A stretch of DNA of 64,000 nucleotides from Candidatus Sungiibacteriota bacterium (GTDB lineage Bacteria; Patescibacteriota; Minisyncoccia; Sungbacterales; HO2-52-23). Location: assembly GCA_016180435.1 (NCBI GenBank), contig JACPBG010000003.1:77791-141790 (forward strand), written 5' to 3'. Positions within the stretch are counted from its first letter, which is position 1. Each line of letters starts with the position of its first letter. A model generated the notes under the pieces. That model was not told the origin of the DNA. It saw only the letters and a program-made list of their open reading frames with translations, and did not search any database. The position numbers and the translations under genes are program-made. Positions 19,038 to 63,642 of this stretch are shown in pieces.

Positions 19038-19898
19038 CTATACTATGGCCCGTTTTATCCAGTTTATTATTTCGCGTGCAAGTTCTTTTTCTTTTCCGCG
19101 GAAACTATGATTCGTGCCTTTTATGACTATGCCCGAAAATGATTTTGCGTTAGGCGCATTTTTGTGGAAGACCTCTATGAGTTTTTTAGCGGGACGATCT
19201 AGGTGTTCGTCACGCGATCCAAAAATTACCGCAAGCGACGTGCGAATTGAATTCAGGGCGCGCCACGGAGCATTCGGATGATAATAAGGAAAAGTGTCTT
19301 CGGCTCTTCCTGGCGTAAATAAGCTCAAATTTCGTCCGGCGGAGAATAGATAACCATTGGATGTAAATATGGCTGAAGGATCTTTTTTGCATAATCTTTT
19401 GGCGAGTTGGAAATTTTTTTCAAATTTTCGTCTTCCAATACGTTTTATCTCGGCAACAATATCGCTTACTGCCCCAAGAAGCATTAATCCTTTTATGCGC
19501 TTATCCCCGGTTTTATGCATATAATATACGATTTTGTTTGCGCCGGTAGAGTGTCCGGCAAGAATGATATTTTTATAGCCCATCCGCTCGGCCTCATTTA
19601 TCATGGCGCGGACATCTAAAATGCAGTCCTCGAATTTTTCAAATACCGTTCCAAGAAATCTTTTGGGTCCTCGGGCGACAATATCGTGGCCTCTGTTGTT
19701 GAATTTAAAGTATCCGATGCCCAGTTTTTGGCAGCGGGAAGATAATCCCGAGATTAATTTTTGCGAAGAATAAAAAGAGGATGTTAGTCCGTGAACCCAT
19801 ATAAGCGCGGTCCTGCTTTTTCGTTTAGGCGGAACATAAATCCCGTCCAGCGTTACGCCGTCCGAGGTTTTGATTTGGGTTAAGAGAACGGGAATCAT
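19038..19898 (-). CDS. Alpha/beta hydrolase (esterase/lipase-like)
   Basis: GHSTG nucleophile elbow (ILAGHSTGANKIV). Confidence 0.7.
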   Translation of the reverse strand: MIPVLLTQIKTSDGVTLDGIYVPPKRKSRTALIWVHGLTSSFYSSQKLISGLSSRCQKLGIGYFKFNNRGHDIVARGPKRFLGTVFEKFEDCILDVRAMINEAERMGYKNIILAGHSTGANKIVYYMHKTGDKRIKGLMLLGAVSDIVAEIKRIGRRKFEKNFQLAKRLCKKDPSAIFTSNGYLFSAGRNLSLFTPGRAEDTFPYYHPNAPWRALNSIRTSLAVIFGSRDEHLDRPAKKLIEVFHKNAPNAKSFSGIVIKGTNHSFRGKEKELAREIINWIKRAIV

Positions 19899-19906
19899 GT
19901 AACCAA

Positions 19907-19985
19907 ATCAACGAATAACGAATCTTATTCGAATTTACGAATAAACAAGTTCGTATATTCGTAAGCCATTCGTTATTCGCTGATG
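19907..19985. repeat. Family A' ('cgaataacgaat' subfamily) element
   Basis: atcaacgaataacgaatcttattcgaatttacgaataaacaagttcgtatattcgtaagccattcgttattcgctgatg; it includes the pepA stop TAA. Confidence 0.7.
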
Positions 19986-25997: not shown

Positions 25998-26465
25998 ATG
26001 CGTAGAAAAAGGAAATTCACCAGAGAAATAATTCCGGATGCAAAATACAGCAATGTCGCGATTGCCAAATTTATCAACTATGTAATGCGCAAAGGGAAAA
26101 AGTCCACGGCGCAAAAAGTGGTGTATCGCGCCTTTGATGTGATTGAGAAAAAACATCAGCAGGATCCGCTGGCGGTTTTTGATCTGGCTATGAAAAATGC
26201 ATCTCCTTTGATGGAAGTGCGGCCGCGCCGGATTGGCGGAGCTACATATCAGGTGCCGCGTGAAGTCCGGCCCGGGCGTAAAATGGCCCTTACCTATCGC
26301 TGGATTATCGCGGCGGCGCGTTCCAAGAAAGGCAAACCCATGCATGTAAAATTGGCGGAGGAATTGATCGCGGCTTCCAAAAACGAGGGGATGGCGATTA
26401 AAAAGCGGATGGATATGCATAGGATGGCCGAGGCCAATAAAGCGTTTGCGCATTTCGCCTGGTAA
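25998..26465 (+). CDS. rpsG: 30S ribosomal protein S7
   Basis: MRRKRKFTREIIPDAKY...KKSTAQKVVYRAFD... Confidence 0.9.
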   Translation: MRRKRKFTREIIPDAKYSNVAIAKFINYVMRKGKKSTAQKVVYRAFDVIEKKHQQDPLAVFDLAMKNASPLMEVRPRRIGGATYQVPREVRPGRKMALTYRWIIAAARSKKGKPMHVKLAEELIAASKNEGMAIKKRMDMHRMAEANKAFAHFAW

Positions 26466-26938
26466 AATTACTACGAAGGTACGAATTTTTACGAACGTAC
26501 GAATAATTATGCGGGAAATAAAAAAGAAAGATTTATTATATCCTGATTTAAGCTATCAAGTGGTTGGTATTTTATTTGAAGTATTTAATGAACTCGGTTA
26601 TCAGTATCAGGAAAAATATTACCAAAGAGCGATCAGCAAAAGTTTGCATCTGGTAGGCATTCCTTTTCAGGAACAAATTATTTTTCCAATAGAATTTAAG
26701 GGTCAGAAGATTGGCCGGTATATCTTTGATTTTTTAGTTGATAATAAAATTGTTTTAGAAATAAAACGTGGTGACACTTTTTCACCTCAAGATATCCGAC
26801 AAACGATCGCCTACTTAAAAAGATCAAATTTACGACTAGGAATCCTTGCTCGTTTTTCAAGCAAGGGTCTTAAGTTCAAAAGAATAGTAAATATAATTGA
26901 TTCGTAATTTTCGTATTTATTCGTAACTTCGTAGTAAA
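26466..26938 (+). mobile_element. Putative autonomous family A-type element (TIR-nuclease-TIR) inserted between rpsG and fusA
   Basis: Left attactacgaaggtacgaatttttacgaacgtacgaataatt; right (reverse complement) tttactacgaagttacgaataaatacgaaaattacgaatc. The nuclease ORF stop lies inside the right TIR; the fusA ATG follows immediately. Confidence 0.6.
26509..26907 (+). CDS. GxxExxY-type PD-(D/E)xK nuclease-like protein
   Basis: YQYQEKYYQRA (GxxExxY region) and IFDFLVDNKIVLEIKRGD (D ... E-x-K). Paralog of 21896..22297. Confidence 0.7.
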   Translation: MREIKKKDLLYPDLSYQVVGILFEVFNELGYQYQEKYYQRAISKSLHLVGIPFQEQIIFPIEFKGQKIGRYIFDFLVDNKIVLEIKRGDTFSPQDIRQTIAYLKRSNLRLGILARFSSKGLKFKRIVNIIDS

Positions 26939-29071
26939 ATGCCAAGAGAATATCCTTTAGAGAGTACCAGAGATATCGGCATTATTGCCCATATTGATGC
27001 CGGAAAAACGACCGTAACCGAGCGGGTGCTTTTTTATACCGGCGTATCGCATAAAATCGGCGAGGTGCATGAGGGCGATACGGTGATGGATTGGATGGAG
27101 CAAGAGCGCGAAAGGGGAATTACTATTACGGCGGCCGCAACGAATGTGTTTTGGGTGCCGACGCATGTCGGAGAACTTAGAACTGAGAACTTAGAACTTA
27201 GAAAAAAGAACGAATACAGAATAAATATCATAGATACTCCGGGACATATTGATTTTACCGTGGAGGTTCAGCGCTCACTTCGGGTATTGGATGGCGCGGT
27301 GGTGGTTTTTGACGGAGTGGCCGGAGTTGAGCCGCAATCCGAAACCGTCTGGCGCCAAGCCGATAAATTTAAAGTTCCGCGCATGTGTTTTATAAATAAG
27401 CTTGACCGCATGGGCGCGTCATTTGAGCGCTCGCTCAATTCCATTTATGAGCGACTAACCCCGAATGCGGTTTCGGTGGCAATACCCATAGGACACGAAC
27501 AGGAACACGAAGGCGTGATTGACCTTATGCGCATGAAGTCCGTGAAGTTTCTGGGAGATAAAGGAGAAAAACTTGAATTTGTTGAGATACCCGAGAATTT
27601 GAAATCCTATGCCGAGGAATGGCGCCATAAAATGGTTGAAAAAATTTCGGAAACGGATGACGCGCTTACGGATAAATATCTGGAAGGCAAAGAGATGACT
27701 GTCGAGGAACTGCGTGGCGCTTTACGCCGCGCGACCATTGGATATCGGCTGGTTCCGGTATTTTGCGGATCGGCGCTTAAAAATAAAGGCGTGCAGTTGA
27801 TGCTGGACGGTGTGGTTGATTATCTGCCCTCTCCTTTGGATATGCCGCCGGTAAAAGGAACTCATCCCAAAACCGGTGCGGAAGAAATTCGCGAAGCGAA
27901 AGATGATGCGCCATTTGCCGCGCTTGCTTTTAAATTGCAAACCGATCCTTATGTGGGACAACTTACATATTTTAGGGTTTATTCGGGCATGCTTAAAGCC
28001 GGATCTTATGTTTTAAATTCGGTAAATGGAGATCAGGAGAGGGTGGGGCGGATTTTGCGCATGCATGCCAATACCCGCGAGGAACTGAAAGAAATCGGCG
28101 CCGGAAATATCGGTGCGATTGTCGGTCTTAAAAATACCCGTACCGGAGATACGCTTTGCGATCCGGAGCATCCGGTTGTGCTTGAAAAAATCGTATTTCC
28201 CGAGCCGGTGGTATCTTTGAAAATTGAGCCCAAGACCAAGGCTGACCAGGAAAAAATGGGACTGGCCCTGCGGCGTCTGGGCGAGGAGGACCCGACATTT
28301 CGCATTAAAGGCGACATTGAGACCGGTGATACCATTATTTCGGGTATGGGTGAACTTCATTTGGAAATTATTGTGGATCGCATGAAGCGCGAATTTTCCG
28401 TGGAGGCCAATGTGGGCCGGCCGCAGGTGGCTTATAAAGAAACCATTAAAAAAACCGCGGAAGCGGAAGGAAAATATATTCGTCAATCAGGCGGACGCGG
28501 ACAGTACGGACATGCGTGGCTTCGGGTTGAGCCGCGCGAGCGCGGAAAGGGATTTGAATTTCTTGACGAGATCAAAGGCGGTATAATTCCGCAAGAATAC
28601 ATTCCGGCGATTGAAAAAGGGATTAAGGAGGCCATGGAAAAAGGTGTTTTGGCGGGGTACCCACTGGTTGATATGGCGGTCGCGGTTTATGACGGATCAT
28701 ATCATGAAGTGGATTCGTCCGAGGCCGCATTCAAAATCGCGGGTTCCATGGCTTTGCAGGAGTGCGTTAAGCGCGCGGGACTTGTGCTGCTTGAGCCGAT
28801 TATGAAAGTGGAGGTTGTGACTCCGGAGCAGTTTCTGGGCGAGGTTACCGGGGATTTGAATTCCAAGCGTGCGCGGATTGAAGAAATGTCCGAGCGCGGC
28901 CTGGGAATTAAGGTGATTGACTGCAAAGTTCCGCTTTCGGAAATGTTCGGATATGTTACGACTCTTCGTTCCTTGACGCAAGGCAGAGCCAGTTTTACTA
29001 TGGAATTTGATCACTACGAGGAAGTCCCGAATAATATTGCGCAGCTTATAATTGAAGGGAAGCGGCAGTGA
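26939..29071 (+). CDS. fusA: Elongation factor G
   Basis: [23 protein letters not shown] and all five EF-G domains. Contains a family F-encoded insertion ([15 protein letters not shown]) between G2 and G3. Confidence 0.95.
27172..27212. repeat. Family F heptad-repeat half-element, in-frame inside fusA
   Basis: gagaacttagaactgagaacttagaacttagaaaaaagaac. Confidence 0.7.
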
Positions 29072-29723: not shown

Positions 29724-29942
29724 ATGTCAATGGTCATAGAAAAAAAATATCACAAAAGTATTAGTGAGGTTTCGCGAAAGATGGGAATTAGAGAAAATGA
29801 TCTAGTGGGTCGTGCACTCGCTCTTTATTTAGATAGCGCAAAAAAAATTCTTGATGTAGAAAAAGAATTTAAGGCATGGGACGTTTTGAGCGATGAGTCG
29901 TTGGTTGGACTCGCTAAGCGTGTTCCAAGGCGGTCAATATGA
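29724..29942 (+). CDS. Putative antitoxin (partner of the MazF/PemK-like toxin)
   Basis: 72-aa ORF overlapping the toxin start by 4 nt (ATGA). Confidence 0.45.
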   Translation: MSMVIEKKYHKSISEVSRKMGIRENDLVGRALALYLDSAKKILDVEKEFKAWDVLSDESLVGLAKRVPRRSI

Positions 29943-30265
29943 AAAAGGGTGAAATTTGGTTGGTAGAAATTCCGGGCATTGACGGCCATGAACAGCGGGG
30001 ATTCCGCCCCGCGATTTTTATTGCGGACACCAAGACGGGCGTGGCCATAATTATTCCATGCACTTCTAATTTGCAAGCGCTTCGTTTCCCATTTACTATT
30101 CGTATTGAATCATCTCGCAGTAATGGATTAAATGAATTATCGGTTGCCCTGGTTCTTCAGCTTCGTGCTATTGATAAAAAGAGATTATTGAGAAAAATAG
30201 GACAACTTGATAATTCAGTTCTTAAAGAACTTGACGTGGTGATACGTAATCTTTTAGATTTATAG
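29939..30265 (+). CDS. MazF/PemK-family toxin endoribonuclease
   Basis: MKKGEIWLVEIPGIDGHEQRGFRPAIFIA has the typical PemK/MazF N-terminal signature. Confidence 0.75.
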   Translation: MKKGEIWLVEIPGIDGHEQRGFRPAIFIADTKTGVAIIIPCTSNLQALRFPFTIRIESSRSNGLNELSVALVLQLRAIDKKRLLRKIGQLDNSVLKELDVVIRNLLDL

Positions 30266-30382
30266 AGGACCAGTTTCGCGTACCCAAATAAAAATAGCGG
30301 CACGAGTCGAGGTAACCCATCGTGCATTCATTCTCGCTCTCCAATAAATAAGAACTACTATGGATATATCAAAATTAAAAAA

Positions 30383-30412
30383 TCTTGTCAAATATATATA
30401 GGAGATGGTATA
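30383..30412 (+). promoter_or_regulatory. Sigma70-like promoter for the hicBA cassette
   Basis: TTGTCA-N18-TATATT (cttgtcaaatatatataggagatggtatatt). The same ttgtcaa motif precedes the mazEF cassette. Confidence 0.4.
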
Positions 30413-30420
30413 TTGAAGAT

Positions 30421-30675
30421 ATGAAAAAACGACAAAAAATTAAAAAAGAAATCGCCACTTTTAATGCGGTATTTTTGGAAGAAAGCGATGGAGGATACAG
30501 CGTAAGTGTGCCTGCTTTGCCGGGCTGTTTTTCACAGGGTGATACCTTTGAAGCGGCCGTGGAAAATATAAAAGAGGCCATAGAACTTTATCTTGAAGAT
30601 GAATCTAAAGAGATTGATTTTTTGAAAGTTCGCCCTAAAAAAGAATTCATGGTACCAGTTGAACTTTATGCCTAA
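30421..30675 (+). CDS. hicB: HicB-family antitoxin
   Basis: FLEESDGGYSVSVPALPGCFSQGDTFEAAVENIKEAIELYLE matches the HicB/UPF0150 signature. Confidence 0.7.
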   Translation: MKKRQKIKKEIATFNAVFLEESDGGYSVSVPALPGCFSQGDTFEAAVENIKEAIELYLEDESKEIDFLKVRPKKEFMVPVELYA

Positions 30676-30895
30676 ATTGCCGCAGATTTCGGGAAAAGAG
30701 ATGGGGCGGGTTTTGGCTCGCCTCGGTTTTATATTCAAAAGCCAGAAAGGAAGTCATATGAAATTCATTCGCTTGCATGACGGCGCAAAAGAAATTATAG
30801 TAGTACCAAATCATAAAACGCTTCGTAAAGGAACATTTAGCGGCATATTAAAGCAGCTTAACATCACCTTTGAAAAATTACGCGAGCTGATGTAA
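30668..30895 (+). CDS. hicA: HicA-family toxin
   Basis: MPKLPQISGKEMGRVLARLGFIFKSQKGSHMKF matches the HicA/YcfA signature. Confidence 0.7.
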   Translation: MPKLPQISGKEMGRVLARLGFIFKSQKGSHMKFIRLHDGAKEIIVVPNHKTLRKGTFSGILKQLNITFEKLRELM

Positions 30896-30927
30896 TAAAA
30901 AATAGCGGTGCGGGTTCGTACACACAT

Positions 30928-31230
30928 ATGAGTGAAAAAATGGAAAAATTGAAAAGCGAAATATCTCCCGAAGAATATAAAAAAAAGCTTCTCACTGTTG
31001 CCGGCGAACTTTTCAAAGGGAAAGTCCCAAATTATTTCCTTGAATATCTTGATAATGATGAAATTGAAAGTGCCAGAGTATCACTTTTAGGCGCGATTGA
31101 TGCGTTCGTTTTTGGAAAAAATATATCAGATGAAGAAGCAAAAACAAAATATGAAATTCTGGGTTTTGATCCGGAGGAAGCAAGTAGGATCAGAAACTTA
31201 AGCAAAGCCAATAAAAGAAGATCTCAATAA
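30928..31230 (+). CDS. Hypothetical protein
   Basis: 100-aa ORF preceded by the same aaataaaaaatagcgg leader repeat. Confidence 0.4.
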   Translation: MSEKMEKLKSEISPEEYKKKLLTVAGELFKGKVPNYFLEYLDNDEIESARVSLLGAIDAFVFGKNISDEEAKTKYEILGFDPEEASRIRNLSKANKRRSQ

Positions 31231-31293
31231 TCAAATTTATTTTGCATTTTATTTTTTACGTTTTGTAGCAGAACAGCGATAAATTTTAAAAAT

Positions 31294-31593
31294 ATGGAGT
31301 GGGTAAAACTCAAAAATTTGGTAAAACAAAATGGAGATAAGTTTGTGTTGGTTGAAAATGGGGAGCCGGAAATTGTGATGATGTCTTTTCATGAATATCA
31401 GAAACTCGCTAATCATAATGCGAATACGGCGAATTTGCGTACGAATGTCACGAATCGCGAAGACGACAACTATTATATGGATGTATCCGCGGGCCGTTTG
31501 CCGGAAACCGAATTTGTATCACCCCACGAGTTAGAAGCGCCCGGACTTCCGGTGCGGCTTGAGGATATCCGGCTGGATGATCTGCCCATTTGA
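31294..31593 (+). CDS. Phd/YefM-like antitoxin-domain protein
   Basis: NGEPEIVMMSFHEYQKL resembles the Phd/YefM N-terminus; C-terminal extension; no toxin partner found. Confidence 0.45.
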   Translation: MEWVKLKNLVKQNGDKFVLVENGEPEIVMMSFHEYQKLANHNANTANLRTNVTNREDDNYYMDVSAGRLPETEFVSPHELEAPGLPVRLEDIRLDDLPI

Positions 31594-34627: not shown

Positions 34628-35251
34628 ATGAAGTTTATCTTAGGTGAAAAAATAGAAATGTCGCAGATTTTTGATAAAGACGGCAATGTGGTACCGGTAA
34701 CTTTGGTGCGGGCAACTCCTAATGTGGTTTTGCGGGTAAAAACCAAAGAAAAAGACGGATATGAAGCGATGCAGGTTGGGTTTGGAATTAGAAAAGCGAA
34801 GAATATAAAAAAATCACAGCTCGGGCATTTCAAAGATTTAGGAAATTTCAGATATGTTCGTGAATTTCGAAAGCTACCAGCTACAAGCTACCAGCTGCCA
34901 GCTCGCGGGGAAAAGATTGATATCTCTATATTTCAAGAGGGAGATAGCGTAAAGGTGAGTGGTATTTCCAAGGGCAAAGGATTCCAGGGCGTGATGAAAC
35001 GGCACGGATTTCATGGGGCTCCGGCGTCGCACGGAACCAAGCATGCGCATCGCGAGCCGGGGTCCATTGGTGGTGCCGGGCGCGCCGGAGGAAGGGTTGC
35101 TAAAGGAATGCGAATGGCGGGACGTATGGGAAGCGATAGGGTTACGGTGAGAAATTTGAAAATCGCGAAAATTGATTTAGAGAATAATATGTTGGCGATA
35201 AAAGGGGCAATTCCCGGAAGAAGAGGAACATTGTTGGAAATTAGAGGGTAA
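34628..35251 (+). CDS. rplC: 50S ribosomal protein L3
   Basis: MKFILGEKIEMSQIFDKDGNVVPVTLV ... GKGFQGVMKRHGF. Confidence 0.9.
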   Translation: MKFILGEKIEMSQIFDKDGNVVPVTLVRATPNVVLRVKTKEKDGYEAMQVGFGIRKAKNIKKSQLGHFKDLGNFRYVREFRKLPATSYQLPARGEKIDISIFQEGDSVKVSGISKGKGFQGVMKRHGFHGAPASHGTKHAHREPGSIGGAGRAGGRVAKGMRMAGRMGSDRVTVRNLKIAKIDLENNMLAIKGAIPGRRGTLLEIRG

Positions 35252-38641: not shown

Positions 38642-38725
<84 letters not shown>

Positions 38726-39463
38726 GTGACTCATCGAGTTCATCCATACATATTTCGGATTGGGCATACGACGAATTGGAAGTCGCGTTGGTTTAGGGCG
38801 CATAAATTTTCTGAATATTTGCGTGAAGATGCCATATTGCGCGAGTTGCTGGAGAAAAAATTGCGCAAGAATCATATTGAGGCGATTGAAATTGAACGAG
38901 CTCCCAATGTTGTGCGGATATTTGTAAGAACTGCGCGCCCCGGAATGATTATAGGACGCGGAGGAGAGGGATCCGAAAAATTAAAAAATGAGATTACCGC
39001 ATATCTTGCCAAAATACGTAAGAGATTCAATAGCCCCGTGGTTCAAAAAGAGGATCTGAAGCTTACCATTGAAGAGGTGCGCGCTCCGGAGACCCATGCC
39101 CTAATCGCAGGGCAGATGATCGCAGATGAGATTGAAAAGCGTATTCCATTTCGCCGCGTGTTAAAACAGGCCGTTGAGAGGATTTTTGGATCAAAGGGCG
39201 TTGAGGGCGTTAAAATAATGATAAAAGGGCGTCTGGACGGCAATGAAATTGCGCGCACCGAATGGCTGAAAAGAGGACGGATTCCGCTGCAAACCATTCG
39301 TGCCAACATAGATTTTGCGCATCGTACTGCCTATACCACATATGGGACGATTGGGATAAAAGTATGGATTTATAAAGGAGATATATTTGATAAGAACTTA
39401 GATCTTAGAACTAAGAACTTAGACAAGCATTTAGAACTTAGAACCAAGAACTTAGAAAATTAA
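38726..39463 (+). CDS. rpsC: 30S ribosomal protein S3 with repeat-encoded C-terminal tail
   Basis: KH and S3_C domains (IGRGGEGSEKLKNE...). The last 24 aa (DKNLDLRTKNLDKHLELRTKNLEN) are encoded by the family F element. Confidence 0.9.
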   Translation: MTHRVHPYIFRIGHTTNWKSRWFRAHKFSEYLREDAILRELLEKKLRKNHIEAIEIERAPNVVRIFVRTARPGMIIGRGGEGSEKLKNEITAYLAKIRKRFNSPVVQKEDLKLTIEEVRAPETHALIAGQMIADEIEKRIPFRRVLKQAVERIFGSKGVEGVKIMIKGRLDGNEIARTEWLKRGRIPLQTIRANIDFAHRTAYTTYGTIGIKVWIYKGDIFDKNLDLRTKNLDKHLELRTKNLEN

Positions 39464-39515
39464 ACTATTTACTAAGTTCTAAACGCTAAGTTCTGAGATC
39501 TTTTGCGAAGCAAAC
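39392..39515. repeat. Family F element overlapping the rpsC 3' end and the intergenic gap
   Basis: taagaacttagatcttagaactaagaacttagacaagcatttagaacttagaaccaagaacttagaaaattaaactatttactaagttctaaacgctaagttctgagatcttttgcgaagcaaac, then ATG of rplP. Confidence 0.8.
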
Positions 39516-42446: not shown

Positions 42447-42453
42447 CTGATAA

Positions 42454-42538
42454 CTTTACGAAATACGAATCATTACGAATGTACGAATACATTTTATCAG
42501 ATTATTCGTAAATTCGTATATATTAGTATTTCGTAAAG
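42454..42538. repeat. Family A element
   Basis: ctttacgaaatacgaatcattacgaatgtacgaatac...attcgtaaattcgtatatattagtatttcgtaaag. Confidence 0.8.
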
Positions 42539-42547
42539 ATAAAGATT

Positions 42548-43740: not shown

Positions 43741-43862
43741 TGCGAGATTTTAGAACTTAGAACCAAGAACTTAGACAAGCATTTAGAACTTAGAACCAAG
43801 AACTTAGAAAATTAAACTATTTACTAAGTTCTAAGATCTAAGATCTAAGTTCTCGTGCGAGA
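43741..43862. repeat. Family F palindromic element
   Basis: tgcgagattttagaacttagaaccaagaacttagacaagcatttagaacttagaaccaagaacttagaaaattaaactatttactaagttctaagatctaagatctaagttctcgtgcgagatc. Confidence 0.8.
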
Positions 43863-44239: not shown

Positions 44240-44326
44240 ATTTTACGAAATACGAATCATTACAAATATACGAATACGTTTTGGTAAGTTGATTCGTAAA
44301 TTCGTACCTATTCGTATTTCGTAAAG
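44240..44326. repeat. Family A element
   Basis: ttttacgaaatacgaatcattacaaatatacgaatacgttttggtaagttgattcgtaaattcgtacctattcgtatttcgtaaag. Confidence 0.85.
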
Positions 44327-44328
44327 GC

Positions 44329-44826
44329 ATGGCAAGACCCCGAGAGCGAAAATTGAATTCGGAGTTTGAACGTGAGCGGTCGGAATTCGACCAGCGCGTT
44401 TTAGATATCAGGCGGACGGCCCGTGTGGTTGCGGGCGGCCGGCGTTTTAGTTTTCGGGCAGCCGTCATTGTGGGTAATCGCAAGGGCCGAATCGGGTTTG
44501 GGATGGGAAAGGGAATTGATGTATCCGCTGCCGTGGAAAAAGCCGTTCATCGGGCCAAAAAAGAATTGATAAATATTCCGCTCACCAAGAGCTTTTCAAT
44601 ACCTCACGGAGTCAGCGGCAAGGCGGCCGCCGCTCGGGTAATTTTGAAGCCGGCGGTTGAAGGCCGGGGACTTGTGGCTGGCGGCCCGGTACGGGCGATC
44701 GCGGACCTCGCAGGGATTAAGAATCTTACCGCCAAAATTCTTGGCCGTACTCCGAATAAATTGAACAATGCTAAAGCGGTGATAGAAGCGTTAAAACACT
44801 TGAAGAATTTAGAACAGAGAACTTAA
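44329..44826 (+). CDS. rpsE: 30S ribosomal protein S5
   Basis: RTARVVAGGRRFSFRAAVIVGNRKGRIGFGMGKG. Confidence 0.9.
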   Translation: MARPRERKLNSEFERERSEFDQRVLDIRRTARVVAGGRRFSFRAAVIVGNRKGRIGFGMGKGIDVSAAVEKAVHRAKKELINIPLTKSFSIPHGVSGKAAAARVILKPAVEGRGLVAGGPVRAIADLAGIKNLTAKILGRTPNKLNNAKAVIEALKHLKNLEQRT

Positions 44827-44829
44827 TTG

Positions 44830-44916
44830 ATTTTACGAAATACGAATCATTACAAATATACGAATACGTTTTGGTAAGTTGATTCGTAAATTCGTACCTA
44901 TTCGTATTTCGTAAAG
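44830..44916. repeat. Family A element; near-identical duplicate of 44240-44326 including the left flank ttaattgat
   Basis: Same sequence as the previous copy. Confidence 0.85.
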
Positions 44917-47334: not shown

Positions 47335-48051
47335 ATGAACGAACCTATTTCATCAAAAAATAAATTTGCTATTAGTGTAATGGGTCCGCCGGGCTCCGGA
47401 AAAGGAACACAGGCGCAGATACTTGCCGGCGGACTTGAGGCCTTTCATTTTGTCACGAGTGTCGAGGGCAAAAAATATATTGCCGCCCATGACGATCCCG
47501 AAACAAAACGTCAAGAAGTCAGATATAAAAAAGGACTGCTTTTTGAATCTCCCTGGACACTCCGCGTGGTACAAGAAAAAACGCAGCGTGTTTTTGAGGA
47601 CGGGCTGAGTATTGTTTATGACGGTTCACCGCGTACCCCGCTTGAAGCAGAAAAACTGATCCCGTTTCTCATTAAACTTTTCGGCAAAGAGTGTGTCGTG
47701 GCCGTGGAACTTAAAGTCGGTGAAGCCGAATTGAGATCGCGTCTTTCCAAAAGGCGGGTATGCAGTCTTGATCATTCCCACGCTTTTATTGACTCGGAAA
47801 ATCATCATATTGGAGATTTATGTCCCAAGATGGATGGGGGAGTGTTGCAAAAAAGGGAGATTGACGAATCGGCGCTTTTTGAAACACGCATGGGAGAATT
47901 TAGAAATTTGACTATACCGGCCATTGAATTTTTTCATAAGGAGGACGTGCTTATTGTTATCAATGGCGAGCAGTCGATTGAAAATGTGCGGCGCGATATT
48001 GATGAGGCGTTTGCCAAAAGATTCGGTAAGCGGTGGCCCCGTGGAGTATGA
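47335..48051 (+). CDS. adk: Adenylate kinase
   Basis: MGPPGSGKGTQAQIL P-loop. Classic secY-adk-map order; stop overlaps the map start (ATGA). Confidence 0.8.
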   Translation: MNEPISSKNKFAISVMGPPGSGKGTQAQILAGGLEAFHFVTSVEGKKYIAAHDDPETKRQEVRYKKGLLFESPWTLRVVQEKTQRVFEDGLSIVYDGSPRTPLEAEKLIPFLIKLFGKECVVAVELKVGEAELRSRLSKRRVCSLDHSHAFIDSENHHIGDLCPKMDGGVLQKREIDESALFETRMGEFRNLTIPAIEFFHKEDVLIVINGEQSIENVRRDIDEAFAKRFGKRWPRGV

Positions 48052-48857
48052 TTACGATTAAAACTACAGAAGAAATTGCTATATTGCGAGAAGGAGGCAG
48101 ACGGCTCGCAGAAATTTTGCAAAAGCTGGTTGAGGCGTCTTGTCCCGGCGTATCGGATTTTGAGCTTGATGTTCTGGCGGAGGAACTTATTTTAGCATGC
48201 GGAGGAAAACCGGCATTTAAGGGATACAGGATCAAGGAAACGCGCGTTGCGTTTCCCGCTTCCATTTGCGTGTCGATTAATGACGAGGTGGTGCACGGGA
48301 TCCCGCGCAAAAACCGGATCTTAAAAGATGGTGATATTGTCGGGATTGATATAGGAATGCAGTGGCCGAATCAAGAACTTAGAACTAAGAACTTAGAACT
48401 TAGAAATATAAGAGGAATGTATACGGATATGGCGGTAACTATCGGGGTGGGTAAAATTTCGGCAGAAGCCGAACGGCTGATTCAAACAACCCGATCTGCA
48501 TTAGATGTCGGTATTCGGACGGTACGTCCGGGTGCGCATGTCGGAGATATAGGATGCGCCGTGGAGGAGGTTCTAAAACGCGAAAAACTCGGGATTATAA
48601 GGGATCTTGCCGGACACGGCGTGGGGCATGATCTTCATGAAGAGCCGCTTATTCCGAATTACGGAATGCGCGGCGCCGGAGTAGAATTAAAAGAGGGCAT
48701 GGTTATTGCTATTGAACCCATGGCAACTTTGGGGGGATGGCGGATTAAGCTTGATCGAGATGAGTGGACGATCCGTACCGCTGATCGGAGTTTGGCGGCG
48801 CATTTTGAGCATACTTTAGTTGTTACAAAAAGCGGAGCGGAGATATTGACGAAATAG
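48048..48857 (+). CDS. map: Methionine aminopeptidase type I with repeat-encoded insertion
   Basis: Pita-bread fold with metal ligands (DIGMQ ... HGVGHDLHEEP ... AIEPM). Family F insert QELRTKNLELRN lies after DIG. Confidence 0.85.
   Translation: MITIKTTEEIAILREGGRRLAEILQKLVEASCPGVSDFELDVLAEELILACGGKPAFKGYRIKETRVAFPASICVSINDEVVHGIPRKNRILKDGDIVGIDIGMQWPNQELRTKNLELRNIRGMYTDMAVTIGVGKISAEAERLIQTTRSALDVGIRTVRPGAHVGDIGCAVEEVLKREKLGIIRDLAGHGVGHDLHEEPLIPNYGMRGAGVELKEGMVIAIEPMATLGGWRIKLDRDEWTIRTADRSLAAHFEHTLVVTKSGAEILTK
48373..48406. repeat. Family F heptad-repeat half-element, in-frame inside map
   Basis: caagaacttagaactaagaacttagaacttagaaat. Confidence 0.7.
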
Positions 48858-51595: not shown

Positions 51596-51680
51596 TTTAC
51601 GAAATACGAATCATTACGAATGTACGAATATGGCATGGCAAATTAATTCGTAAATTCGTATATATTCGTATTTCGTAAAG
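51596..51680. repeat. Family A element
   Basis: ttttacgaaatacgaatcattacgaatgtacgaatatggc...attaattcgtaaattcgtatatattcgtatttcgtaaag, then at + ATG of tpiA. Confidence 0.8.
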
Positions 51681-55983: not shown

Positions 55984-56107
55984 ATCCTGTACACAAATCC
56001 ACTAATGAGCACACAAATCCACAAATGGGATAAGTAGTCGTGATTCGTGGATTGGTGTATCAATTCGTGGATTGGTGTATCAATTCGTGGATTGGTGTGT
56101 TTGTTTT
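55984..56107. repeat. Family C element with triplicated right-arm iteron
   Basis: atcctgtacacaaatccactaatgagcacacaaatccacaaatggg...cgtgattcgtggattggtgtatcaattcgtggattggtgtatcaattcgtggattggtgtgtttg. Confidence 0.8.
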
Positions 56108-56108
56108 T

Positions 56109-56543
56109 ATGGAAAAAATAATTGTCTATACCGATGGCGGCGCCCGGGGAAATCCTGGTCCGGCGGCTATCGGGGTTGTTATTAAGGATTTAAATGGCCA
56201 TACTATTAAAAGTTATGGCGAAGCAATTGGGAATACGACTAATAATGAAGCGGAATACCGGGCGGTGGTTTTGGCATTGCAGAAACTTAAACTTATTTTT
56301 GGCGGAAAGAAAACAGAAAAACTATCGGTAGAGTTTCGAATGGACAGCGAACTGGTGGCGTGCCAGCTTAAGGGAGAATATAAGATTGAAGAAGAGCGCC
56401 TGTTTCCGCACTTCATAAAAATATGGAATCTAAAGATGGATTTTCGCGAAATTGTATTTAATCACATCCCCCGGGAAAAAAATAAAGAGGCAGACCGGTT
56501 AGTGAATGAGGCGCTGGATAAAGAGCAGGAAAAATTATTTTAA
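56109..56543 (+). CDS. rnhA: Ribonuclease HI
   Basis: IVYTDGGARGNPGPAAIGVV...NNEAEYRAVVLAL...NHIPREKNKEADRL. Confidence 0.8.
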   Translation: MEKIIVYTDGGARGNPGPAAIGVVIKDLNGHTIKSYGEAIGNTTNNEAEYRAVVLALQKLKLIFGGKKTEKLSVEFRMDSELVACQLKGEYKIEEERLFPHFIKIWNLKMDFREIVFNHIPREKNKEADRLVNEALDKEQEKLF

Positions 56544-56576
56544 CAAAAACCCGCGTAGGCGGATTTTTGTTATCCT

Positions 56577-56600
56577 TGATGCATCTATAAGCCGAATTCT
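56577..56600. terminator. Bidirectional hairpin terminator (rnhA on plus, rnpB on minus)
   Basis: aaaaacccgcgtaggcggatttttg. Confidence 0.6.
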
Positions 56601-56603
56601 GTT

Positions 56604-57093
56604 CCGCATTTTTTTATATTTTTGCGGAGATGATCATTTATCTAGGCCAAAGATTTCTCATTTGGCTCAAGCGGATTTTCCGCAATTGCGGATTACCTTG
56701 CACCGGATAGGAGTTTTTCACCGCGTATTGTTGCCAGTACGCGCTGTGAGCTTTTACTTTTACCTCGCCGAAGCGAAGCTTATCCCGCGCGAAGGCGGGC
56801 TCACTCTTTTCACCCTTACCTCCTCCACCATAAAAACCTTTAGAGTTTTTTTGATGACGATCGGCGGTATTGTTTCTGTGACACTTTCCCGGTCATGGCG
56901 GCCGTTAGCCGCTATCTCTAACGCTGCATAGCAGCGTAGAACTTAGAACCAAGATCTTAGAACTTAGAAAAACGACTAAGATCTAAGTTCTAATACTCTA
57001 AGTTCTGCGTTGCTATGCAACGCTGGTGTTCGGACTTTCCTCCCCCCAGTAATGTTTTGCATTAATGGGAGCGATCATCCAATGCATCAAGGT
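56604..57093 (-). ncRNA. rnpB: RNase P RNA (bacterial type), interrupted by a family F palindromic insertion
   Basis: Minus strand shows ggaggaaagtccgaacacc (P4 5' strand), gtcacagaaac, ggtaagggtgaaaagagtgagcc, ggtgcaaggtaatccgc, gcttgagccaaatgag...ggcctagataaatgatc...gcggaacagaattcggcttatagatg (E. coli M1-like 3' third). P1 pairs ccttgatgcat/atgcatcaagg. Confidence 0.75.
56935..57004. repeat. Family F palindromic element inserted inside rnpB
   Basis: tagaacttagaaccaagatcttagaacttagaaaaacgactaagatctaagttctaatactctaagttct, flanked by hairpins acgctgcatagcagcgt and gcgttgctatgcaacgc. Confidence 0.75.
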
Positions 57094-61030: not shown

Positions 61031-61123
61031 ACGAGAACTTAGAACCAAGAACTAAGAACTTAGAAAATTAAACTACTCGCTAAGTTCTAAGATCTATATG
61101 CTAAGTTCTTTTGCGAAGCAAAC
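61031..61123. repeat. Family F palindromic element with start-proximal tail
   Basis: cgagaacttagaaccaagaactaagaacttagaaaattaaactactcgctaagttctaagatctatatgctaagttcttttgcgaagcaaac, then GTG of atpA. Confidence 0.8.
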
Positions 61124-62639: not shown

Positions 62640-63527
62640 ATGATTCGAAGAAACATTTTTGAAGAAACAGAGCGTCTTTCAGTACTTCGTATTCTTATCG
62701 AAACGTATGAGGGCATTGCCGCCATGACCATACGCCGAATTCGAAATTCAGTTCTGCAAAACCGCGAATTTTATGCCGGCCTGTCTGATCTTTTTGCCGA
62801 AATAAAATCAGCTTACGCAAAAGATCTGCGCTCCCTTATGGTCAAGCGGGGAATAAAACAGGCGTTGGCCGACGGAGCTAAAGCCAAATCTTTATCGCTG
62901 ATCCGGAGAAACGGCAAAACCGTTTATGTCCTGCTTTCGTCTAACACCGGACTTTACGGGGAAATTATCGGCAAGACATTCGCTTTATTTGTTAAGAACA
63001 TCCGCTGGAGCGATGCGGATTGCGTGATAGTCGGCAGGGTGGGCAGGATGTTATTTGAATCCGCCATGCCGCAAAAGAAATTTTCGTATTTTGATTTTCC
63101 CGACACCCATGTTTCGCGCGCCGATTTGGAGGAAATTACAAAATTTCTCCATCAGTATGAGAATGTCGTGGTATTTCACGGAGCATTTCGCAGTTTTATT
63201 GATCAGCATCCGGCATTATCGCGTGTTTCGGGGGACGAGCGTCTGTTGGGGGAAGAGGCTTCGGGGTCGGTGTCCTACATCTTTGAGCCATCGCTTGAGG
63301 ATATAATGGTTTTTTTCGAAAGTGAGATTTTTGCATCGCTTCTGGGGCAGGTTTTTTATGAGTCGCGTCTTGCTAAAGTGGCAAGCCGTTTAATGGTACT
63401 TGATCGCGCATCCACAAATGTTGATGATGCCTTGCGCCGCTCGTTTTTTAAGCAGCGTCAAGCCGGACATCAGCTTTCCAATAAAAAGCAGATAAATGCC
63501 ATGAGCGGCGTAGCTCTTTGGGGGTAA
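62640..63527 (+). CDS. atpG: F-type ATP synthase subunit gamma
   Basis: Position and size; N- and C-terminal coiled-coil helices. Confidence 0.75.
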   Translation: MIRRNIFEETERLSVLRILIETYEGIAAMTIRRIRNSVLQNREFYAGLSDLFAEIKSAYAKDLRSLMVKRGIKQALADGAKAKSLSLIRRNGKTVYVLLSSNTGLYGEIIGKTFALFVKNIRWSDADCVIVGRVGRMLFESAMPQKKFSYFDFPDTHVSRADLEEITKFLHQYENVVVFHGAFRSFIDQHPALSRVSGDERLLGEEASGSVSYIFEPSLEDIMVFFESEIFASLLGQVFYESRLAKVASRLMVLDRASTNVDDALRRSFFKQRQAGHQLSNKKQINAMSGVALWG

Positions 63528-63615
63528 CATCAGCGAATAACGAATCCTTCGCGAATTTACGAATACTGGAATTCGTAATTCGTATATTCGTACGAGATTC
63601 GTTATTCGACGATGT
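63528..63615. repeat. Family A' element
   Basis: catcagcgaataacgaatccttcgcgaatttacgaatactggaattcgtaattcgtatattcgtacgagattcgttattcgacgatg. Confidence 0.75.
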
Positions 63616-63642
63616 TTTACCGTTATTCGTTGATAAATTTAA

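Follow-up and report, generated by a model that had tools for sequence, protein, structure and literature searches.

Small repeats that are shared between intergenic DNA and protein genes have been described in several bacteria, and two kinds of system come closest to the one reported here. Rickettsia palindromic elements (RPEs) are dispersed palindromic repeats of about 105–146 nt that lie in intergenic DNA and also in frame inside protein genes, where the whole palindrome is translated, and they occur in RNA genes as well. The elements (Ogata et al. 2000, as listed in PMC3184786) belong with Bordetella BRE and pneumococcal repeats to the small repeats that are fused in frame inside genes or extend their 3′ ends (PMC3184786). 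In Geobacter metallireducens, elements of four tandem heptanucleotides with the word GGGACCG are present in 49 copies, intergenic as well as intragenic (Aklujkar et al. 2009, PMC2700814). Heptamer direct repeats of the type TAACTGA are found in Beggiatoaceae and Cyanobacteria (PMC4679880), and among long simple sequence repeats, heptanucleotides have been reported to outnumber all other classes, with polymerase slippage as the proposed cause (Mrazek 2007, as summarised in PMC4679880). Here we describe a heptad-built palindromic repeat, family F, in 64,000 nt of a Sungbacteria genome of the small, groundwater type (Candidatus Sungiibacteriota bacterium, contig JACPBG010000003.1, positions 77,791 to 141,790; this whole stretch is referred to as the window), and in particular a copy that lies in frame in fusA, the gene for elongation factor G (EF-G). 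Our preferred reading, to which we assign a probability of about 0.6, is that fusA recently acquired half of a dispersed heptad palindrome, in a version without stop codons, and that this half-copy is tolerated in a permissive, hypervariable surface loop.

The host gene fusA (26939–29071, plus strand) is an open reading frame (ORF) of 710 codons whose product belongs to EF-G: the best matches in a homologue search are EF-Gs of Candidatus Sungbacteria with 92–93% identity, EF-Gs in the PDB are matched down to E = 1e-76, the homologues carry the GTP_EFTU, EF-G_D2, EFG_III, EFG_IV and EFG_C domains of a five-domain EF-G, and the G motifs, including NKLD, are intact. At 27172–27204 on the plus strand the gene reads AGAACTT, AGAACTG, AGAACTT and AGAACTT followed by AGAAA, i.e., 33 nt that account for 11 residues (79–89), within the codons 27170–27214 for G78 to E92. 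The segment is an exact match to the family F unit, is confirmed by codon reading, and is detected by Tandem Repeats Finder at 27172–27203 with period 7, 4.6 copies and 92% matches. It sits between switch I (RGITI) and the G3 motif (DTPGH), and it is free of stop codons, the in-frame TAG of a perfect array being replaced by GAG at 27185–27187. Only a single arm is present, with no potential to form a hairpin (RNA fold z = −0.5). A sequence-only reading of this locus had described it as a stop-free, one-armed copy of family F between G2 and G3; its coordinates, sequence and frame all proved correct when the DNA and the ORF were read again, the position and the missing hairpin agree with it, and the family assignment holds because the 33-nt unit is matched without mismatch and aligns in register with the left arms of the palindromes described below. 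An AlphaFold2 model places the insert (residues 79–91), at low confidence, between strands 68–72 and 93–99, with a weakly predicted helix at residues 85–91; the model was built from 48 close homologues and is poor (mean predicted local distance difference test score, pLDDT, 65), and only its strand order was used. To that extent the predicted position of the array matches the β2–β3 turn.

Family F is greatly over-represented in the window. The sequence GAACTTAGAAC occurs 34 times with at most one mismatch against 0.76 expected, the word CTTAGAA 31 times against 7.1 expected, and the 33-nt unit AGAACTTAGAACNNAGAACTTAGAACTTAGAAA eight times with at most three mismatches against 0 expected (none in 100 shuffles). 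Three of these eight units are internal to genes and one forms the tail of a gene; the copies in fusA, in map (methionine aminopeptidase, MetAP) and in the spacer between the genes for L22 and S3 have no mismatch at all. The arrays at 38644 and 48374 have the same period of 7 and the same 4.6 copies in Tandem Repeats Finder as the one at 27172. The full element is an imperfect palindrome: its left arm has four heptads in 3 of 5 full copies and otherwise three, and ends in AGAAA(A); a loop of 8–16 nt and inverted heptads follow. Folded as RNA, the full elements give long hairpins with energies of −25 to −54 kcal/mol (z = −4 to −12); the fusA and map copies give none (z = −0.5 and −0.9). Two elements have about 60 nt in common, including the non-heptad sequence GACAAGCATTT and the loop AATTAAACTATTTAC, which argues that the family spread as a unit and not by local slippage at each site.

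The full copies lie in spacers of the ribosomal-protein and ATP-synthase operons, with one inside an RNA gene; the identities of the neighbouring genes are from Pfam, against which about 20 ORFs of the window were scanned. An inverted-repeat search delineates the element in the rplV/rpsC spacer (38644–38711, plus strand), between the Pfam-identified genes for L22 and S3, with 34-nt arms that are 85% complementary (−32.9 kcal/mol, z = −8.8), ending just before the GTG start of rpsC. The rpsC/rplP element spans 39393–39502, i.e., the end of rpsC together with the stretch before rplP; its right, inverted arm (39467–39502, plus strand; hairpin z = −6.4) is followed by TTTTGCGAAGCAAAC and the ATG of rplP. 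A composite palindrome occupies the rplF/rplR spacer (43743–43856, plus strand; z = −4.1), and another is located directly upstream of the GTG start of atpA (61034–61109, plus strand; z = −5.4). Three copies end in TTTTGCGRAGCAARC, directly before the next start codon (rpsC, rplP and atpA). The most stable palindrome, with an extended stem (56922–57022; −54.2 kcal/mol, z = −12.4), lies inside rnpB, the RNase P RNA gene on the minus strand at 56572–57090 (RF00010, 131 bits in Rfam), as part of an insertion of 119 nt where the Rfam model has a 15-nt hairpin. No known RNA family in Rfam matches the family F palindromes themselves.

Besides fusA, further genes carry family F in frame. In map (coding sequence 48048–48857) the unit at 48374–48406 on the plus strand has the same phase as in fusA and encodes ELRTKNLELRN, within an insert of 15 residues relative to Thermotoga maritima MetAP (PDB code 1o0x). 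We take this insert to lie between Asp residues D106 and D131 of the ORF, which align with the metal ligands D97 and D108 of Escherichia coli MetAP. A gene for a ComEC-type metallo-β-lactamase (12128–13030, plus strand) contains the unit in reverse orientation (12767–12799, minus strand), read as SLSSKFFVLSS with TAA replaced by TTC, in a loop that is five residues longer than in relatives. In rpsC (38726–39463), two left arms at 39393–39463 (plus strand) form the last 20 codons and the stop codon, ...DKNLDLRTKNLDKHLELRTKNLEN, and comparison with the nearest relative, in which S3 ends in KGDIFSKTT, shows that the tail of the window protein is 20 residues longer. The last codons of rpsE (44329–44826), KNLEQRT followed by the stop, are encoded by AGAATTTAGAACAGAGAACTTAA at 44805–44826, and the C-terminus of S5 thus looks like a derivative of a decayed family F arm. 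No parallel insert was found in EF-Tu; a candidate there was rejected, since the longer ORF merely has an upstream start.

The coding copies share a constraint imposed by the repeat itself. Since 7 and 3 are coprime, an array is read in all three phases, and every frame of a perfect array meets a stop once in 21 nt, TAG in the forward and TAA in the reverse orientation. The coding copies deviate from the perfect array exactly at the dinucleotide that makes the in-frame stop, with TG in fusA, TA in map, GA in the β-lactamase gene, and TA or CA in the S3 tail. This site, positions 6–7 of heptad 2, decides whether the ELRT?NL frame is open, and it is polymorphic in the intergenic copies as well (TT, CA or TA), so that several non-coding arms are already stop-free in that frame.

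The recipient loop was long before family F appeared in it. At the site of the array, the loop measures 8–39 residues in every one of the 120 closest EF-G homologues, which come from Sungbacteria and other Parcubacteria; the typical Sungbacteria loop, KPTYLPEEKKTKDNE, has 15 residues compared with 20 in the window, and the closest relatives (P0001–P0008, 92–93% identity) have a 25-residue loop, IPTYAARTGTDFDNADTREKDKEHE, unrelated in sequence to family F. Relative to solved structures, the window loop is about 11 residues longer than in γ-proteobacterial EF-G and 18 residues longer than in the short-loop PDB entry 6not. Long loops are dispersed between short ones in a neighbor-joining tree that was computed from EF-G after masking of the loop. 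The relative L006 (EF-G P0025) shares with the window the flanks PTHVG and K(K/E)NEY, and in the DNA CCGAC.CA.GTCGG on the left and AGAAAA..GAA..C GAR TAC on the right, with 36 nt of other sequence in between in L006 and 27 nt of heptads in the window. Both flanks are shared and the sequence between them is not, so that the fusA array looks like a replacement in an already long, hypervariable loop instead of 15 residues added to a tight turn. The sequence-only reading had assumed that other EF-Gs have about three residues here, which is true for short-loop EF-Gs and not for this lineage, and the 15-residue extension of such a loop that it proposed is not supported, as Sungbacteria already have 15 residues typically and 25 in the nearest relatives. 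It had also said that orthologues with loops of equal length and unrelated DNA would speak against it; this is in part what the relatives show, while the family F identity of the window loop stands.

DNA of the relatives shows how variable the site is. The complete Sungbacteria genome L003 (CP066690) has four copies of ACAACCA in the EF-G loop, with a nearly identical array in L129; L005 and L130 have GTAACCA twice followed by GTTACCA twice, itself a mini-palindrome; L004 has degenerate heptads of the type CTAAGTT, the reverse of the word in the window; L006 and L001 have non-heptad, repeat-like sequence; and L007 has a plain loop rich in lysine and glutamate. L001, the nearest relative with DNA compared, thus differs in its EF-G loop, the family F word was not found in it across 22 kb of syntenic sequence, and a 9-mer palindrome takes the place of the L22/S3 family F palindrome. 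With relatives that have 92–93% identical EF-G and no family F in 22 kb of syntenic DNA, the burst of family F looks recent.

Compared with the systems described above, family F is probably closest in form to the four-heptad elements of Geobacter, and by analogy it would work in the manner of RPEs. With Geobacter it shares a tandem 7-nt unit in about four copies, as a multi-copy element with one word at many loci, both between and within genes; the Geobacter element, to which no function is assigned, differs in its GC-rich word, in having no described inverted arm or essential translation factor as host, and in phylum. The resemblance to in-frame RPEs that had been proposed for the fusA insert is confirmed in behavior: both systems consist of a dispersed palindromic repeat in intergenic DNA and in frame inside protein genes, the protein copies lie in tolerated loops with the frame kept open, and one family F repeat is found in intergenic spacers, in protein genes (fusA, map, the β-lactamase gene and rpsC) and in an RNA gene (rnpB). 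However, the fusA, map and β-lactamase copies are single 33-nt arms, free of hairpins, and not whole palindromes of about 100–150 nt, RPEs are not built from heptads, their hosts are Alphaproteobacteria whereas the host of family F belongs to the Candidate Phyla Radiation (CPR), and the fusA insert, unlike RPEs, replaces part of an existing long loop. Given the heptad-built sequence and the non-Rickettsia host, membership in the RPE consensus families is very unlikely.

In heptamer repeat families, to which the cyanobacterial STRR belongs, each genome likewise favors one 7-nt word, which is repeated in short tandem sets at numerous loci; most of these are intergenic and near start codons, and stops within the word limit the overlap of the sets with genes. 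These families differ from family F in their variable copy number, in usually having no inverted partner, and in not being reported in frame inside conserved domains. Repeats of the REP/BIME/REPIN, MITE-like, BRE, BOX and RUP types (PMC3184786) are hairpin repeats within operons, and some are fused in frame or extend 3′ ends, as does the S3 tail. Family F differs from these repeats in its heptad arms; no RAYT or transposase was seen among the ORFs of the window scanned against Pfam, and terminal repeats with target duplications are not clear-cut (the arms are inverted repeats, and a direct repeat flanks one copy). In-frame fusion of repeats is thus already known, and the recurrent reuse of the same loops is unusual. 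Our literature searches returned no report of in-frame dispersed repeats for the CPR or for EF-G.

The half-copy reading implies the following course of events. The donor would have been a single arm, 33 nt long, of a palindromic element whose building blocks are AGAACTT heptads, four in tandem. The arm probably entered fusA as a block, by copy-paste or by templated repair from another copy, because each slippage step of +7 nt shifts the frame, which excludes stepwise growth in an essential gene. Since a stop codon brought into fusA with the arm would be lethal, the donor copy presumably lacked the in-frame TAG in that phase already. The arm would then have replaced the middle of the surface loop at the β2–β3 turn between switch I and G3. 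Only single arms would survive in coding DNA, since a second one would bring in TAA stops and allow the mRNA to form a hairpin. We regard the 11 residues contributed by the arm as most likely a passenger that is tolerated on the protein surface, and not as a functional module; the length variability of the EF-G, MetAP and L3 loops across relatives is evidence that such sites are permissive. The MetAP loop, for example, ranges from empty (DIGMRWGGLFTDMA) to more than 30 residues with a 7-residue periodicity in many variants, and the L3 loop varies in the same manner as the other two.

Several observations weigh against this reading. No mobilizing enzyme is seen in the window: none of the approximately 20 ORFs scanned against Pfam is a transposase; the partner of REP/REPIN elements would be a RAYT (IS200/IS605-like) gene. 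A target-site duplication, the 8-bp direct repeat TGCGAGAT, flanks only one copy, the composite palindrome in the rplF/rplR spacer; the other copies share flanks that resemble translation-start regions. The arms of the elements are inverted repeats. The EF-G loop word of L003, L004, L005 and L006 was not found elsewhere within 17–22 kb in these genomes, and the generalization that each relative's loop word recurs nearby is therefore unsupported; it is in this window only that the loop word has been linked to a genome-wide family. The peptide encoded by the insert is predicted from the DNA, and the structural placement in EF-G draws on the poor model mentioned above. In addition, in three genome pairs the in-frame arrays are conserved in nucleotides far above the surrounding synonymous sites, which would not be expected of a neutral passenger.

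This conservation is seen in two genes. The MetAP arrays of the window, L128 and L127 occupy the same site in the same phase with the same variant second heptad, and differ solely by a concerted C/T exchange at the same position of all four heptads; their third codon positions are identical at 10 of 11 sites within the array compared with 0.33–0.43 elsewhere, and the loop codons that adjoin the array are non-heptad and unrelated between the genomes. The nearly identical EF-G arrays of the pairs L003/L129 and L005/L130 give peaks of third-position identity of 0.85 and 0.75, solely in the 20-codon segment that holds the array, against overall values of 0.49 and 0.46. As the peak is confined to the array, a recombination tract was rejected as the cause. 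Homogenization within the array cannot alone slow the divergence of the word between lineages, and three possible causes are left: the word may be under selection as DNA or RNA, other constrained copies may have converted it repeatedly, or arrays may have been inserted anew at the same site.

The rival that survives best builds on these data and holds that arrays in coding loops are kept by selection on DNA or RNA, as cis-elements such as binding sites for a heptad-reading protein in translation mRNAs. The third-position identities of the MetAP and EF-G arrays, with unconserved loop codons next to the former, point in this direction, as does the position of full copies right before the start codons of rpsC, rplP and atpA, with a common terminal flank. 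On the other hand, the words at the same site are wholly different between genomes, many relatives have a plain loop with no array, the array is absent from the window's closest relatives, one of the coding copies is reversed, no candidate binding factor was identified, and the conservation could come from repeated conversion by other genomic copies. We regard this explanation as possible and rather doubtful. A related proposal is that in Sungbacteria the β-hairpin tips of essential translation proteins (EF-G at the β2–β3 turn, MetAP and L3) are recurrent landing and holding sites for four-heptad arrays whose nucleotides, also at third codon positions, stay unchanged as synonymous sites in the rest of the gene saturate, the hairpin loop of MetAP being placed, by analogy to the E. 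coli enzyme, presumably between two metal-ligand Asp residues. The arrays would then be functional nucleic-acid elements, or elements actively maintained by conversion from a genome-wide family, and the proteins would have evolved to carry them; if true, this embedding of cis-elements in coding loops would be a form not previously described. We hold the notion of recurrent sites to be speculative, and the same tentative status applies to the idea of proteins adapted to their arrays.

Far less probable is local replication slippage of a 7-nt seed in fusA, independent of the palindromes, with the shared word due to coincidence or mutational bias. Slippage has been proposed for the abundant heptanucleotide repeats (Mrazek 2007, as summarised in PMC4679880), and tandem heptanucleotide arrays are indeed common across phyla, the AGAACTT word included: a scan of a genome collection located AGAACTT arrays in many unrelated phyla, on at least 118 contigs (L008–L125), with 4 to more than 20 copies among the matches listed, which include Shewanella, Halomonas, Paenibacillus, Geotalea, Fibrobacter and others. 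Several genomes have such arrays on 3–4 contigs, and they often stand beside arrays of other heptads (e.g., L010, Geotalea, and L076, Paenibacillus). In fusA, however, every step of +7 nt would shift the frame of an essential gene, and the copy has 0 mismatches to the 33-nt unit in length, in the heptad-2 dinucleotide and in the terminal AGAAA, in a window with eight copies of the unit where none is expected by chance.

Slightly weaker still is the suggestion that the peptide itself is functional, as a charged, amphipathic segment of the G domain with a 7-residue period that modulates the binding of the ribosome or a partner. The heptad periodicity and the helix weakly predicted by the model at residues 85–91 would fit such a segment, and the same type of peptide is found in MetAP and in the S3 tail; yet periodicity is automatic when 7-nt repeats are read in three phases, the peptides of relatives are unrelated or their loops short, the reverse-orientation copy encodes an unrelated peptide, and conserved arrays keep their third codon positions too, which points to nucleotides rather than protein, so that we consider a peptide function highly improbable. 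An assembly or sequencing artefact that misplaced a repeat inside fusA is barely credible, even though the source of the window is a metagenome-assembled genome, the assembly index has no entry for the exact EF-G protein, and a search of JGI metagenome contigs for the fusA junction gave no match, because both flanks are genuine fusA with the frame kept over 710 residues, the segment is shorter than the usual assembly k-mers, an independent assembly from Logan (L126, run SRR12113390) contains the map insertion without any change, and four-heptad arrays occupy the same fusA site in five other genomes. A metagenome scan with the family F loop sequence gave one match, on a marine contig, which was judged to be due to chance.

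Heptad arrays of other words were also noted, both in the window and in relatives. In rplC of the window (L3, 34628–35251) an in-frame array of the word AGCTACC, of a different heptad family, encodes KLPATSYQLPA (34872–34903, plus strand). At the same L3 loop, L004 (11613–11643) and L007 have other heptads, L003, L005 and L006 have a short loop, and L001 (15453–15502) has a perfect palindrome in frame with 23-nt arms. Further arrays of other words in relatives are located at 19544–19580 in L005, 14763–14831 in L003 and 15213–15246 in L007, at the C-terminus of S3 (AGAAAGT, four copies) and just past tuf (ATAGCTT, 4.6 copies, and the ACAACCA type). In the ribosomal-protein operon of L127 almost every spacer has heptad arrays, and from genome to genome orthologous spacers vary in the word and even in the period.

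The window contains other repeats as well. A second, larger palindrome family is built from 8–9-mers of the TACGAAT type (2918–2983, 19907–19984, 26894–26926, 42451–42541, 44242–44325, 44832–44915, 51596–51679 and 63526–63616); one copy lies directly upstream of fusA, and related copies are present in L006 (15809–15872) and L001 (9090–9126). An origin of the DADxNAD-type EF-G loop of many relatives from this family was considered and rejected, since no match was found. A 22-nt unit, ATGCCAATCC(N)GCGAATTTA, occurs with about 1.9 repeats at gene 3′ ends or just past them, both inside and outside the ribosomal-protein operon (33012, 36015, 40586, 41124, 42149 and 59520). Adjoining rnpB, the 5′ end of an RNase H/RVT_3-like ORF (56040–56543) carries 2.8 copies of a perfect 20-nt tandem repeat, ATTCGTGGATTGGTGTATCA, at 56043–56098. 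The str operon is broken up: a gene of the PD-(D/E)XK nuclease family (PDDEXK_3, 26446–26907) separates rpsG from fusA, and the interval between fusA and tuf (29724–31593) contains a PemK/MazF toxin gene, a HicB/HicA pair and a weak Phd/YefM-like ORF.

Within one stretch of 64 kb, a single 33-nt unit is thus present in EF-G, MetAP, a ComEC-type domain, the tail of S3 and RNase P RNA, which makes a repeat invasion visible on the core translation machinery. If the conservation of the arrays is general, these genomes would offer a testable case of DNA or RNA constraint inside a protein loop. The finding also calls for caution, in that lineage-specific loops in core proteins of the CPR can be repeat-derived rather than adaptive.

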